Shown here: one piece after another, positions 1 to 8,399 of the stretch
How positions within the stretch are numbered: the first letter of the stretch is position 1
Layout of the letters: every line of letters starts with the position of its first letter
Origin: Candidatus Cloacimonadota bacterium
GTDB lineage: Bacteria > Cloacimonadota > Cloacimonadia > Cloacimonadales > TCS61
Assembly (NCBI GenBank): GCA_018645365.1
Contig: JABGOP010000003.1
Location: 3,967 to 67,966, forward strand
DNA: 64,000 nucleotides
Direction: 5' to 3'
Position numbers and translations under genes: made by a program
The notes under the pieces: model-generated
The model's database searches: none
What the model saw: the letters and a program-made list of their open reading frames with translations, nothing else
What the model was told of the DNA's origin: nothing

Positions 1-2423
1 TGTTAAAAAAAAATAATCCCACAAAAACTTTGGCTTGGATGAATTTGGAAGAACATTTTCAAAGAATGAAAAATGTTCAGATGACAGATTTGTTTGAAAA
101 TGATAAGAAAAGATTTAATAAATTTTCGCTGGTTTTGGAAGATATTCTGGTTGATTTCTCTAAAAATATCATCAATGATGAAACCATAAAATTATTCAAA
201 CAACTCGTTGAAGAAGTTGATTTAAAAGACGCGATTGAACAACAATTTTCTGGGAAAATCATTAACGAAACAGAAAATAGAGCCGTTTTGCACACCGCCC
301 TCCGAAATCGTGCAAACAGCCCCATTTTTGTCAACGAAGAAGATGTGATGCCACAAATTAATTCTGCCCTTAAAAAAATAGAAAATTTTTCTAATCAGAT
401 AACTTCTGGGCAAATTAAAGGTTTTTCTGGACGCACAATTACCGATATTGTTAACATTGGAATCGGCGGTTCAGATTTGGGACCGAAAATGGTGACCGAA
501 GCACTGAAATCTTACAAAAAAATAAACATCAACACCTATTTTGTGGCCAACATAGACGGTTCAGATATCGTCGATATATTGAAAAAACTGGATTCAGAAA
601 CTACACTTTTCATCATTGCCTCCAAGACTTTTTCGACCTTAGAAACAATGACAAACGCAGAAACTGCCAAAAAATGGTTTTTACTTCACGCGAAAGATGA
701 GAAACAAATCGCAAAACACTTTGTGGCAGTAACTGCCAATAAAATTTCGGCCGAAAATTTTGGTATCGATTCAAGTAACATTTTCCAATTTGCCGATTGG
801 GTAGGTGGCAGATATTCACTTTGGAGTTCAATTGGACTCTCAATTTCTTGTGCAATTGGTTACGAAAATTTTGCAGAAATTTTGGAAGGTGCATTCACGA
901 TGGACGAACATTTCAGAAATGAAAACTTCGAAAATAATATTCCTCAAATTTTAGCATTAATCAGCATTTGGTATCTCAATTTCTTTGGCACAATTTCCGA
1001 AGCCATATTACCTTATGATAACTATTTACACTTTTTGCCAAGCTATCTCCAACAAGTAAACATGGAAAGTAATGGTAAAAATGTCGATCGCGATGGACAA
1101 CTAATTTCATACCAAACAGCACCCATTATTTGGGGTGGCGTTGGCACAAACAGTCAACATTCGTTTTTTCAGCTACTTCATCAAGGTTCACAATTAATTC
1201 CGTGTGATTTTATCGTTCCGGCAATCACACACAACCCGATTGGCGACCATCATCAGAAATTGCTCTCAAATTTTTTCGCACAGACAGAAGCACTCATGGT
1301 CGGCAGTAAAAGCAATGAAAATGCATTCAAAAATTTTAATGGAAATCGCCCCACAAACTCTATCATTTTCAACAAAATAACGCCACGAAATTTGGGAAGT
1401 TTAATCGCAATGTACGAACACAAAATTTTTACGCAAGGTGTTATTTGGAATATATTTAGCTTCGATCAATTTGGAGTTGAATTGGGCAAAAAACTTGCCA
1501 AAACTATTTTGCCAGAACTCTCGGAAAAAACCAAAAGTTCCAAACATGATTCATCTACCAATGGTCTGATAAATTATTTCAAAAACATCAGCAAAACTGC
1601 TGAAAACCAGCATTATTTTCTGCAAAAAATTGGTGCAAATCGAAATTTAATCACGCTACCAACACTACCTGAAATTCAAATTAACATTTTACGCACTTGC
1701 TATAAAGAAGCACTTTCTAGCAAACAAATTGCTGAATTTTTAGGAAAAAAGCAAAAATCTGGTAATCTTAAGCGCGCGCTTTACGCTCTCAATAAGAAAA
1801 AACTTTTACACTACACAATTCCAGAAAAACCACATAGCTCCTTCCAAAAACACGAAATCACGGAAAAAGGAAAAGAAGTTTTGGCGTTTTATGAAGACAA
1901 GAAAAAAGAACTTTTAAATCGCATCCAAATAATCAAAGGCGACATTACCCAAATTGAAGTGGAAGCAGTTGTAAACGCAGCCAACAACTCACTTCTCGGT
2001 GGTAGCGGAGTGGACGGCGCAATTCATCGAGCCGCTGGCAGCGAATTAGTGCGTGAATGCAGATTAATCGGCCGTTGTGCCACTGGCGATGCAGTTATCA
2101 CAAAAGCCTATTCATTGTCCGCAAAAAACATCATTCACGCAGTCGGTCCCATTTGGCATGGTGGTTCAAATAATGAAGACAACTTATTGGCTTCATGCTA
2201 CAAAAAGAGTTTGGAAATTGCCACCGAAAATAATTTATCCACCGTTGCATTTCCAGCGATAAGCACTGGTGTTTATAGATTTCCACTCGAACGAGCCACC
2301 AAAATTGCCATCAAAATTGTGAAAGATTTTTTGGAAAATAACACCGCCATAGAAAAAGTTATTTTCGTCTGTTACCGCGATAAAACTTACGAAATTTATC
2401 AGAATTTTTTACGGGACAATTAA
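1..2423 (+). CDS. pgi: Glucose-6-phosphate isomerase fused to a winged-helix-like segment and a C-terminal YmdB-type macro domain (5' end clipped by window edge)
   Basis: The frame of ORF 30..2423 stays open to the window start. Upstream codons read LKKNNPTKT, which parallels the E. coli Pgi N-terminus MKNINPTQTAAW, so the ATG seems cut after its first base. On ORF-track numbering, aa 1-519 align collinearly with Pgi ([37 protein letters not shown]). aa ~545-618 look like a wHTH ([19 protein letters not shown]). aa 630-797 are a macro domain ([39 protein letters not shown]). Confidence 0.9.
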
Positions 2424-3055
2424 TGCCAAAATTTGTGCTAACGCAAGACGGTTCGTTTACCGCGTTCAACGAACAATTTTCGGAACATTACCATTCTATC
2501 AGTGGTGCTTTTGAAGAAGCACTCGAAAAACATGTAAATGCCCTTAAAGTTGAAGATGGCATGCACATTCTTGATTTCTGTTTTGGACTCGGTTACAACA
2601 GTTTCGTTGCCACTATAAACCACAAAAATTTACAAATTATCGGATTGGAAAATGATTTAAATATTTTAACGGCAATTAGCGAAATTGAAGCTCCCAAAAA
2701 ATTACAAAAATCATTTTATACATTTGCTAAAATTGCTGAAAAACAGACAATTACAGATGACAACAATAATCAAATTTCATTAAGAATTGGTGATGCAAAA
2801 AATACAGTTGCATTGTTAAATAGCAATCATTTTGATCGTGTGTTTTTCGATCCATTTTCACCCCAAAAACAACCAGAAATGTGGACTGTTGAAATTTTTA
2901 CAGAAATATTTCGCATCATGAAAAAAGGTGCTAAACTTTCCACTTACAGTTGTGCAAAAATTGTAAGAAAAAATATGGAAATAGCTGGATTTTCCATAAT
3001 TGACGGTCCAAAAATAGGTCGAAAAAGTCCAGCAACAATTGCAACAAAAAAATAA
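2423..3055 (+). CDS. MnmC-N-terminal-like SAM-dependent methyltransferase (DUF752 type)
   Basis: 210 aa. The C-terminal half resembles the E. coli MnmC methyltransferase domain ([14 protein letters not shown] versus FLDGFAPAKNPDMW), followed by a [10 protein letters not shown]... stretch. The start overlaps the pgi stop (TAATG). Confidence 0.7.
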
Positions 3056-3105
3056 CTTGCCTAAATTATCGACTTATTTTTTTTCTCAATCGAAAGGAGA
3101 ATTTT

Positions 3106-4134
3106 ATGTTAGAACGAATTTCTGATCCTGTTTCAAAATCAGAAGATAGAGATTTTGACCGTAGCTTACGCCCTAAAAAACTAGCCGATTTTATCGGTCA
3201 AAAAAAGATAAAAGAGATTTTGGACATCTCCATCAAAGCTGCTAAACTACGCCAAGAACCGCTTGACCATGTCTTGCTTTACGGTCCACCCGGTTTGGGC
3301 AAAACAACACTCGCGCACATCATCGCGAACGAACTTGATACAGACATCAAAATTAGTTCTGGTCCCGTTTTGGATAAAGCACCAGATTTAGCTGGAATTC
3401 TCACAAATCTGCAACGAAATGATGTTTTTTTCATAGATGAAATCCACCGTTTGAACCACATTGTAGAGGAATATATGTATCCCGCCATCGAAGATTTTGA
3501 AATGGAAATCATCATCGACAGTGGACCTTCTGCTCGTTCTTTGAATATCGAAATCGAACCTTTCACATTGATTGGTGCAACCACTCGTGCAGGCTTACTC
3601 ACATCGCCACTGCGAGCACGATTTGGCATTGTTTTACGACTCGATTATTACGATGTTGCGAGTATCAAAAAAATCATCAATCGTTCCGTAAAATTGATGA
3701 ATATTCCCATTGATAATGAGGGAGCGGACGAGATTGCACGGCGTAGCCGTGGCACACCTCGTGTGGCAAACAGACTTCTCCGCAGAGTGCGAGATTATGC
3801 CCAAATTAAGGGTGATGGAAAAATTACTTTTGAAATTGCTCAAAAAGCTCTTAAAATGCTCGATGTAGATCATGCGGGGCTAGATGAAATGGACAAAAGA
3901 CTGATTAAAACTGTCATTGAAAATTATGGCGGTGGACCAGTTGGCTTGAAAACTCTCGCCGTCGCAGTTGGTGAAGATGCTGGCACAATTGAGGAAATTT
4001 ACGAACCATATCTAATTCAGCAAGGTTTTTTGGACAGAACACCACAAGGAAGAAAAGTTACTCTAAAATCTTACCGACACTTCAAAATTTCACCATCACA
4101 AAAACAGATGGATATTTTCGAAAATTTCGAATAA
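3106..4134 (+). CDS. ruvB: Holliday junction branch migration helicase RuvB
   Basis: Walker [22 protein letters not shown] and Walker [10 protein letters not shown], with full-length RuvB collinearity. AAGGAG Shine-Dalgarno lies upstream of the ATG. Confidence 0.97.
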
Positions 4135-4373: not shown

Positions 4374-4688
4374 TCACAAAATTTCAAAAACATAATTCCA
4401 CATAAAATAATTCACAAAAATACCCAAAAAAGATACCGTCATCAAAGCATAGATTTGCTTACGAAAACGATGATACAATAATTTATTCAAAAGTAATATA
4501 ATACTCAAAAACGGTCCGAAATATGGTATTAAAAATATGCACACAAAATATAAAAAATAATCTTCTATTTTCATTTTGATGTGGTGGAAATGTCGTTTTG
4601 GAACTTTGCCACAAAAAGGACAGACCATTGAAAATTCTGACTCAATTACAGCGTTACAATACGGACAAACAAATTCATTTCGTGACAT
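4374..4688 (-). CDS. Hypothetical zinc-ribbon membrane protein
   Basis: The maximal ORF is 4374..4733 with a TTG start. The ATG at 4688 is preceded by GGAGAG at good spacing. Two CxxC pairs (CPYC, CPFC) are followed by two hydrophobic helices. No family was recognised. Confidence 0.5.
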   Translation of the reverse strand: MSRNEFVCPYCNAVIESEFSMVCPFCGKVPKRHFHHIKMKIEDYFLYFVCIFLIPYFGPFLSIILLLNKLLYHRFRKQIYALMTVSFLGIFVNYFMWNYVFEIL

Positions 4689-4831
4689 TACATTACTCTC
4701 CATAATTGCATATACACGCAATTTCTGTTCCAAAATGAATTTTTTCTTAAAATATTTTTATTGTCTCGTGGCTATGTTATTATTTTGCAGTTTGTTATGA
4801 ATTTTTATTTTTACTATTTTCGGTGAAAAGG

Positions 4832-8322: not shown

Positions 8323-8399
8323 TGGTGGGTGATACGGGATTCGAACCTGTGACCTCTACGATGTCAACGTAGCACTCTAACCAACTGAGCTAATCACCC
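8323..8399 (-). tRNA. tRNA-Val (anticodon GAC), CCA encoded
   Basis: The reverse complement reads GGGTGATTAGCTCAGTTGGTTAGAGTGCTACGTTGACATCGTAGAGGTCACAGGTTCGAATCCCGTATCACCCACCA. It folds as a cloverleaf with a 7-bp acceptor stem, anticodon stem CTACG/CGTAG, loop TTGACAT and T-loop TTCGAAT. There is one A-C mismatch in the T stem. Confidence 0.95.

Follow-up and report, generated by a model that had tools for sequence, protein, structure and literature searches.

Can a core glycolytic enzyme and an ADP-ribose-processing domain form one maintained bacterial protein, or does such an arrangement only reflect a faulty assembly or a gene on its way to decay? This question is raised by the left end of a stretch of 64,000 nucleotides (nt) from a Candidatus Cloacimonadota bacterium (GTDB lineage Cloacimonadia; Cloacimonadales; TCS61), taken from the forward strand of contig JABGOP010000003.1 of assembly GCA_018645365.1 (positions 3,967–67,966) and referred to as the window in the following. 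A sequence-only reading of this DNA had pointed to a single open reading frame (ORF) that fuses phosphoglucose isomerase (Pgi), a winged helix-turn-helix (wHTH) segment and a macrodomain, and had considered both an assembly error and a recent loss of the pgi stop codon as possible explanations. Here, we report that the gene encodes a genuine three-domain protein, in which Pgi, wHTH and macrodomain are intact and under purifying selection.

In frame 3 of the window, no stop codon is encountered from nt 3 until the TAA at 2421–2423 (ORF scan), and searches with domain profiles place all three parts within this frame, which bears out the fusion as a single ORF. The frame thus stands as read within nt 1–2423, whereas the start codon is cut by the window edge: the true ATG has its A 1 nt to the left, and nt 1–2 are the remaining 'TG'. 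In six longer contigs of the same population this ATG is preceded by GAGGTAATCT and followed by TTA, and a GAGG Shine-Dalgarno-like sequence together with the start codon is visible in contigs L001–L005 and L007. The complete fusion product comprises 807 amino acids (aa).

Independent support for the frame came from an exact look-up of the 210-aa protein encoded directly downstream, which returned 22 contigs from JGI, ENA, NCBI and Logan assemblies. Nine of these align to window nt 1–3100 at 99.7–100 % identity and without gaps; six span the whole gene in the same 807-codon frame, the other three being partial. The six full-length assemblies are independent and were made with different assemblers. 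Within the ORF, 11 distinct variable sites were found, 9 of which are synonymous, including sites in the junction/wHTH and macrodomain regions (nt 1586, 1832, 1985, 2378, and 2411). An assembly error is ruled out by this identical open frame in at least six independent assemblies. The gene callers of JGI and ENA accordingly report an 807-aa PGI + Macro product, whereas two NCBI metagenome-assembled genomes (MAGs) filed as 'Candidatus Cloacimonetes bacterium' (GCA_018693745.1, L003, and GCA_018669435.1, L006) list only a 180-aa deacetylase that starts from a TTG at nt 1881, and no pgi coding sequence. The DNA of both MAGs keeps the intact 807-codon frame with no stop, and the 180-aa record is an annotation difference and not a sequence difference.

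The fusion is furthermore not confined to this population. With the entire protein as query, one genome per GTDB species was scanned. Among the 80 best-matching pgi loci, which were retained, only the locus of one Cloacimonadota GTDB representative MAG (L011) matches over residues 1–805; it encodes an 831-aa fusion of the same domain order, with glpK and an α/β-hydrolase gene upstream and a methyltransferase gene and ruvB downstream, and its RuvB is 79 % identical to that of the window. The other 79 pgi loci end normally, and a macrodomain was found within ~6 kb of pgi in none of them, including the Cloacimonadota locus L023 and the Neomarinimicrobiota locus L016. A scan of metagenomes with a profile of the winged-helix segment yielded eight further loci (L092–L099), seven of which are continuous pgi-linker-macro ORFs of 828–839 aa, while in the eighth (L097) the ORF is open over 804 codons and then cut by the contig end. 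The orthologous fusions are ~61 % identical and represent at least five further Cloacimonadota lineages. Exact look-ups identified two of them in public records, namely MDP8201290.1 (828 aa), named 'glucose-6-phosphate isomerase [Candidatus Tenebribacter burtonii]', and RLC57698.1 (839 aa), a 'hypothetical protein' of a Cloacimonadota MAG; clusters of fusion proteins at 90 % identity contain 3–13 members.

Ratios of nonsynonymous to synonymous substitution rates (dN/dS; Nei-Gojobori, non-saturated pairs) amount to 0.07–0.10 for Pgi, 0.06–0.22 for the winged helix, 0.02–0.10 for the macrodomain, and 0.06–0.28 for the spacer between Pgi and wHTH. As these values are well below 1 in each part, every part is maintained as protein. 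Judged from these comparisons, the fusion predates the split of lineages that are now ~61 % identical, and a recent stop-codon loss is ruled out by the occurrence of such diverged orthologous fusions under purifying selection in several lineages. Related genomes (L011, L092–L099) thus carry the same continuous fusion, with no stop or frameshift after Pgi, which would have spoken against the sequence-only reading. Among the sequences searched, the fusion appears to be restricted to one Cloacimonadota clade that includes the window organism, Tenebribacter burtonii, and relatives; its carriers are a group of uncultured marine Cloacimonadota. This distribution was taken from the contig scans. Word-indexed protein searches with the linker alone gave no matches, and those with linker plus macrodomain or with a profile returned almost only stand-alone macrodomains, in addition to P0002 and the fragment P0162, which joins the end of Pgi to spacer and wHTH without a break in the frame and represents yet another variant. 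The full-length fusion clusters are present in the protein collection and were not returned by these searches, so that the rarity of the architecture is not quantifiable from protein databases.

The N-terminal part of the protein is covered almost end to end by Pgi profiles. Pfam PGI (PF00342) matches aa 51–523 over the entire profile (1–486 of 486; E 3e-212, 705.9 bits, cut-off 22), and the NCBIfam Pgi equivalog NF001211 matches aa 3–529 (profile 3–542 of 544) with 787.4 bits against a cut-off of 492. Residues 2–545 of E. coli Pgi (3NBU, 549 aa) align with residues 2–527 of the fusion at 60 % identity, and this alignment shows that the catalytic and phosphate-binding motifs are all conserved, including VELGK and GIGGSDLGP. 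In full-length numbering, the catalytic residues are Lys209 (nt 624–626), Arg271 (810–812), Glu356 (1065–1067), His387 (1158–1160), and Lys497 (1488–1490). By its residues, the Pgi part is therefore read as full-length and catalytically intact. One peculiarity concerns 18 Pgi residues (~439–460 of E. coli Pgi) that are deleted only in the window lineage and are kept in the other fusion lineages and in E. coli. Membership in the bifunctional transaldolase/Pgi family (NF007080) was rejected, as the fusion reaches 69.5 bits against a cut-off of 712 and only its Pgi part matches.

Ordinary Pgi proteins (eight from other genomes) terminate 5–12 residues past the motif STNGLINxYK, and the fusion junction coincides with this normal stop position. 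Together with the alignment to 3NBU, this places the end of the Pgi homology where the sequence-only reading had set it; the peptide strings quoted there are likewise all found in the translation. Beyond the junction, the first 23 residues are predicted to be disordered, with AlphaFold2 (AF2) confidence scores (pLDDT) below 50 in a model of linker plus macrodomain, and in the alignment both length and sequence of the spacer vary between lineages. The spacer is thus probably the former pgi stop codon and intergenic region. In the window lineage, it contains no in-frame ATG, GTG, or TTG between the Pgi end and the wHTH, and since a canonical start is lacking there, the wHTH can be made only within the fusion. 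A conserved in-frame start ahead of the wHTH was not found across lineages, and some lineages retain an in-frame Met just ahead of helix 1 (DPMNLTELH...). A vestigial pgi terminator was also considered, in the form of two overlapping 5–6 bp hairpins at nt 1588–1612, right after the Pgi homology (CAGCA/TGCTG/CAGCA), which are followed by a T-rich stretch. With a folding energy of −12 kcal/mol and z = −1.9, these hairpins are probably due to chance, and an Rfam scan of the window gave nothing at the Pgi/spacer junction.

In the segment behind the spacer, Pfam Fic-like_C (PF21247) matches aa 562–620 with 16.4 bits and thus below its cut-off of 27; the window segment scores 16.4–20.6 bits against this gathering threshold, and orthologous segments 18–26, while the threshold is passed by two related loci, L010 (29.0 bits) and L091 (27.4 bits), that are described further below. 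PF21247 nevertheless ranks first among Pfam families with the window segment and with all six orthologous segments except L091, where HTH_45 comes first and PF21247 second, and most of these matches span approximately profile positions 5–64 of 64 (13–64 in L091). An exhaustive phmmer search with aa 530–643 against 1.84 billion representative sequences gave 561 matches at E ≤ 1e-3 (best 8e-24), nearly all at the C-termini of proteins that vary widely in length. All ten of the top matches that were scanned carry PF21247 above cut-off, often in tandem, and several additionally contain SLFN_AlbA_2 and/or HATPase_c_4; where coordinates allowed a check among these ten, the match falls on a PF21247 copy or directly beside one. 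Neither Macro nor PGI occurs in any of the ten.

Structure prediction is in line with this assignment. An AF2 model of the wHTH built with the family alignment (pLDDT 94.5) comprises three helices (H1-H2-H3), a wing of two strands, and a final long helix at the C-terminus. Foldseek relates this model to MarR/PadR winged helices at template modelling (TM) scores of 0.7–0.8 and to the domain that ends the Fic protein 4RGL with a root-mean-square deviation (rmsd) of 1.7 Å over 68 residues; the E-values of these matches are only ~1e-3. Conserved signatures in the alignment are KSGN(L/F)KRA, which in the window begins as KSGNLKRA at nt 1755, and P-x-(K/R/N)-P-x-S-S-x-Q-K-(Y/H)-x-I-T. The domain is markedly basic, with a net charge of +8 to +12 over 74 residues in all nine sequences (window +8); this 74-residue block corresponds to alignment columns 595–668 (~nt 1674–1895) and is slightly longer than the domain as delimited in the feature table. 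Taken together, sequence comparison and predicted fold assign the middle segment to the winged helices of the Fic-like_C family, homologous to the C-termini of Fic and AlbA_2 proteins. This agrees with the Fic/AlbA_2-type wHTH of the sequence-only reading, which likewise had the macrodomain right as YmdB-like with intact catalytic residues; only the length of the latter is ~166 aa rather than 168.

In the C-terminal part of the protein, Pfam Macro (PF01661) matches aa 657–769 (E 3e-44, 150 bits, cut-off 22), and the O-acetyl-ADP-ribose deacetylase model NF001664 matches aa 640–804 with 214.2 bits (cut-off 200), whereas the sister model NF001663 stays under its cut-off of 285 (226.6 bits). The nearest structures are those of E. 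coli YmdB (5CB3/1SPV; E 1.7e-49 for 5CB3), followed by human MacroD2 and MacroD1. In the alignment to 5CB3, the motifs VNAAN, GVDGAIH, and GVYRFP find their counterparts, including those of the YmdB catalytic residues N25 and D35, and the catalytic residues Asn662 (nt 1983–1985), Asp672 (2013–2015), His676 (2025–2027), and Tyr759 (2274–2276) are invariant in all nine wHTH-macro sequences. AF2 models the domain with blockwise pLDDT values mostly above 90, and the predicted structure superposes on YmdB 5CB3/5CMS with an rmsd of 0.9 Å, a TM score of 0.95, and E 6e-20 (Foldseek). In the same type of model, the long connector helix that follows the wing passes directly into the first macrodomain strand. 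On the strength of alignment and model, the domain is classified as a YmdB/MacroD-type macrodomain whose catalytic residues appear intact.

Other macrodomain classes were considered and rejected. A hydrolase of the Zn-macrodomain/SauMacro type (NF003163), a class marked by an N-terminal helical Zn-binding extension, is not indicated, as the score of 158.8 bits falls short of the cut-off of 272 and full-length superposition on 5KIV, 8RSL, and 8RSM gives an rmsd of ~21 Å; moreover, genes for GcvH-L, SirTM, and LplA2 were not found near the fusion. Judged by gene neighbourhood, an antitoxin macrodomain of the DarG type is not indicated either, as an adjacent DarT gene is missing and the neighbours are glpK, α/β-hydrolase, methyltransferase, and ruvB. 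The match to the AAA ATPase-macro family (NF009880) is only partial, with 136 bits against a cut-off of 891.

How could such a protein have arisen? The wHTH-macro pair also exists without Pgi. In L010 (ENA ERZ23498405, a contig of 891 bp), it is located behind an unrelated ORF in another frame, and in L091 (Ga0255447_1106, 1–2287), a wHTH-macro ORF that is open to the contig edge is directly followed by glpK with overlapping stop and start codons. The latter glpK is 66 % identical to that of the window lineage, where glpK lies upstream of the fusion, so that the wHTH-macro module stays near glpK while the gene order differs. We infer that the simplest history would be one in which the stop codon of pgi disappeared and translation continued into an adjacent wHTH-macro gene, given that the junction coincides with the usual end of Pgi, the disordered spacer is variable, and some lineages keep an in-frame Met. 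In this scenario, an ancestor would have lost the pgi stop, translation would have run via a short intergenic stretch into the downstream wHTH-macro gene, and the former intergenic stretch would now serve as the disordered spacer. A genome with unfused pgi and wHTH-macro genes in tandem was not found among those scanned.

The L010 contig deserves a separate remark. Its wHTH-macro frame has no canonical start ahead of helix 1 and overlaps the end of the upstream ORF (nt ~100–150), and the overlap contains the sequence CG-A_AAA_AAA-TTC, an A7 run with the phasing of a −1 slippery heptamer. The upstream protein would be joined to the wHTH-macro part by an indel of one base or by slippage of −1 at this site, and the A7 run could stem from a homopolymer error or mark either a pseudogene or another kind of fusion.

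What the fusion does for the cell is a matter of graded probability. On balance, and with some reserve, we favour the reading that the two enzymatic halves are independent and that the fusion is kept for cost-free co-expression and dimeric presentation. As predicted from its family, the N-terminal part would be the cell's ordinary dimeric glycolytic/gluconeogenic isomerase, and the C-terminal part would, on the same grounds, act as a hydrolase of ADP-ribose esters, that is, of acyl or other ester-linked substrates, with O-acetyl-ADP-ribose (OAADPr), mono-ADP-ribosylated acidic residues or nucleic-acid ends as candidates. The basic wHTH would be a targeting module of the macrodomain, most likely directing it to nucleic acid or to a conserved partner; elsewhere, the Fic-like_C winged helix is found on Fic AMPylases and AlbA_2 ATPases. 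Pgi, which interconverts glucose 6-phosphate and fructose 6-phosphate, is an obligate homodimer, and because of this, the protein, in this reading a dimeric bifunctional enzyme, would present two wHTH-macro arms on flexible tethers. Several points weigh against this picture. The activities of all three parts are predicted here from sequence and modelled structure, and it could not be confirmed that the fused gene is the only pgi of these genomes. The wHTH of the window scores below the Pfam threshold, so that its family membership rests on orthologues and pairwise homology. In the macrodomain, the catalytic Tyr is followed by Arg (GVYRFP) instead of the Gly found in YmdB (GVYGYP), an exchange that is common to the close stand-alone, deacetylase-annotated homologues examined (P0001 aside). 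In the window lineage, a surface segment of Pgi is shorter by 18 residues; we take the missing stretch to be part of the 'hook' that embraces the partner subunit in PGI structures, and the dimer contacts of this Pgi may differ owing to the deletion. Finally, the fusion is retained in every lineage found, and the linkage itself could thus be under selection.

The last point leads to the alternatives. That the linkage reflects a true functional association in the Rosetta-stone sense is unlikely in our view: here, the macrodomain would control Pgi, either through de-ADP-ribosylation in cis or through allosteric control by ADP-ribose or OAADPr, or both would belong to one pathway between NAD+ turnover and hexose-phosphate flux. 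The sequence-only reading had likewise raised regulation of Pgi through ADP-ribosylation, or metabolite channelling, as possibilities. The maintenance of all parts by purifying selection across lineages that are only ~61 % identical would fit such a link, as would, by analogy only, the interaction of human PARP14 with PGI (see below), whereas the occurrence of the wHTH-macro pair without Pgi (L010) and the variable disordered spacer, a tether typical of beads on a string, speak against it. Likewise, a rough scan of the 64-kb window with regular-expression motifs gave no sirtuin, Nudix, or ADP-ribosyltransferase signatures, and the Pfam families recorded for the flanking genes include no ADP-ribosyltransferase. 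We also know of no metabolite that directly joins the Pgi and macrodomain reactions, which counts against a link of this kind. Very unlikely is a trigger enzyme, in which Pgi, a SIS-fold binder of sugar phosphates comparable to the RpiR sensor domain, would dimerise the wHTH for DNA-binding gene regulation in response to hexose phosphates and/or ADP-ribose. The resemblance of the wHTH model to DNA-binding MarR/PadR domains, its positive charge in each lineage and its conserved signature residues are all compatible with this idea, and so is the dimeric nature of Pgi, as DNA-binding wHTH proteins are usually dimers; the wHTH, however, travels with the macrodomain rather than with Pgi (L010, L091), the long flexible spacer would couple it poorly to the geometry of the Pgi dimer, and the Fic-like_C family is not known to bind operators, a further point against it.

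The remaining two alternatives concern the protein itself. It is quite unlikely that the gene mainly yields separate products, either by internal initiation at the TTG (nt 1881), which would give the 180-aa macrodomain, or by proteolysis within the spacer, the fusion then being a minor species. The NCBI records that list only the deacetylase, the AAGGA upstream of the TTG, and the predicted disorder of the spacer are what suggests it. Neither the TTG nor its purine-rich leader is conserved in other lineages, though, and a start at this position would exclude the wHTH, which is under purifying selection; without a stop codon, Pgi translation must moreover run on into wHTH-macro, and gene calling at both JGI and ENA yields an 807-aa product. 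To an artefact or decay, be it a chimera, a sequencing error, or a recent neutral stop loss on the way to a pseudogene, we give practically no credence. This idea arose only from the unusual architecture and the absent full-length NCBI coding sequence, and no support is left for it in view of the shared frame in at least six independent assemblies from different assemblers, the continuous ORFs in at least five further diverged lineages, and the dN/dS ratios in all parts. Independent halves in one polypeptide thus remain the reading that we prefer. The most far-reaching proposal, that ADP-ribose/NAD+ signalling is tied to the first reversible step of bacterial glycolysis, with Pgi ADP-ribosylation being reversed or sensed by its own macrodomain or with the protein acting as a nucleic-acid-binding trigger enzyme, is speculative and improbable to a similar degree as the functional link. 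If true, either version of the coupling, via ADP-ribosylation of Pgi or via a trigger enzyme, would constitute a new regulatory principle and an echo of the human PARP14-PGI interaction. If the halves are independent, the locus is hardly more than a neat case of two genes fused by the loss of a stop codon.

The coordinates of the fusion, its parts, and its downstream neighbours are compiled in the following table.

Table 1. Features of the fusion gene and its downstream neighbours in window coordinates.
Feature	Position (nt)	Strand	Basis or remark
pgi::wHTH::macro single ORF, 807 codons	1–2423	+	ORF scan; longer contigs; JGI/ENA gene calls
Phosphoglucose isomerase domain, class I PGI, double SIS fold	1–1589	+	Pfam, NCBIfam, 3NBU alignment
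Site of the 18-residue Pgi deletion, between ...SKSNEN and AFKNF...	1320–1325	+	alignments
Spacer of ~27 aa, basic, predicted disordered	1590–1670	+	AF2 pLDDT, alignment
wHTH, Fic-like_C family, H1-H2-H3 and two-strand wing (by homology and model)	1671–1862	+	phmmer, Pfam, AF2, Foldseek
Long connector helix from the wing to the first macrodomain strand (predicted)	1863–1922	+	two AF2 models (H93–111; H69–88)
MacroD/YmdB-type macrodomain	1923–2420	+	Pfam, NCBIfam, YmdB 5CB3, predicted structure
In-frame TTG with AAGGA upstream; NCBI start of the 180-aa 'O-acetyl-ADP-ribose deacetylase'	1881–1883	+	annotation of two MAGs
Gene with MnmC-like methyltransferase domain (Methyltransf_30, 210 aa, stand-alone domain)	2423–3055	+	downstream of fusion
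ruvB	3106–4134		downstream of methyltransferase gene

In the window lineage, the fusion is flanked by glpK and an α/β-hydrolase gene upstream and by the MnmC-like methyltransferase gene and ruvB downstream. The ATG of the methyltransferase gene overlaps the stop codon of the fusion (TAATG, window 2420–2426), which suggests translational coupling of the two genes. The order fusion, methyltransferase gene, ruvB is also seen in L095, L098, and L099; L011 and L096 carry an inserted ABC transporter of two genes that separates the fusion from the methyltransferase gene. Further downstream, a small ORF without a Pfam match is located between ruvB and a sigma-54 response regulator (4374–4733, − strand); its product has a zinc-ribbon-like CxxC...CxxC motif in the N-terminal part, with hydrophobic segments behind it, and is 104 or 109 aa long, depending on the assembly. 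The only Rfam match in the 64-kb window is a tRNA gene at 8326–8399 (− strand).

In terms of novelty, the fusion is a new arrangement of known domains. A literature search retrieved no paper that describes a Pgi-macrodomain fusion, and the Tenebribacter paper (PMC8542988) leaves it unmentioned. The proteins themselves can already be found in public databases, where their annotation is generic or split: members of one and the same family go by 'glucose-6-phosphate isomerase' or 'hypothetical protein', or are reduced to a split 180-aa deacetylase, an inconsistency with consequences for metabolic reconstruction in Cloacimonadota. A conserved fusion is a classic hint that its parts are functionally associated, and in this case the partners are a core glycolytic enzyme and an ADP-ribose-processing domain. 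With the macrodomain, the nucleotide-modification partners of the Fic-like_C wHTH, so far Fic AMPylases and AlbA_2 ATPases, grow to three types, which supports the idea of a general targeting module.

Among known systems, the only literature link found between macrodomain proteins and PGI is human PARP14, an ADP-ribosyltransferase with three macrodomains. This macrodomain-containing protein binds and stabilises PGI (reviews PMC13224862 and PMC6501648, citing Yanagawa 2007), so that here, too, a macrodomain protein is physically associated with phosphoglucose isomerase; the human association is non-covalent and found in an animal, and no evolutionary relationship is implied. With E. coli Pgi and other class I PGIs, the fusion has 60 % identity over the full length and the catalytic and phosphate-binding motifs in common, and it differs from them by the missing stop after ...LINxYK and by a C-terminal extension of ~280 aa. 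Fusions of Pgi (transaldolase/Pgi, NF007080) and of macrodomains (AAA ATPase-macro, NF009880) to unrelated enzymes are each represented in bacteria; their partners are others, and the present protein is a member of neither family. With YmdB and human MacroD1/MacroD2, which are MacroD-type macrodomains of the O-acetyl-ADP-ribose deacetylase/mono-ADP-ribosylhydrolase kind, the C-terminal domain of the fusion has N-x(9)-D-x(3)-H and the GVY motif in common, and it is ~50 % identical to YmdB over the whole domain, whereas YmdB is a stand-alone protein of ~177 aa and the macrodomain here forms the C-terminus of an 807-aa protein behind Pgi and wHTH. The PF21247 domains of Fic proteins (4RGL) and of SLFN_AlbA_2 + HATPase_c_4 proteins are related to the fused wHTH by sequence homology, the same fold and the family signature SGNLK/RKAL ... 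TIPxKPxSxxQKYxxT; their usual place is the C-terminal end, whereas in the fusion the domain is internal, single-copy, and followed by the macrodomain. Lastly, regulators of the RpiR/MurR type combine a helix-turn-helix with a non-catalytic SIS domain that binds sugar phosphates and thus likewise join a SIS-fold sugar-phosphate module to a helix-turn-helix; their helix-turn-helix, however, is N-terminal and of another family, and in the Cloacimonadota fusion the SIS module is a complete enzyme.

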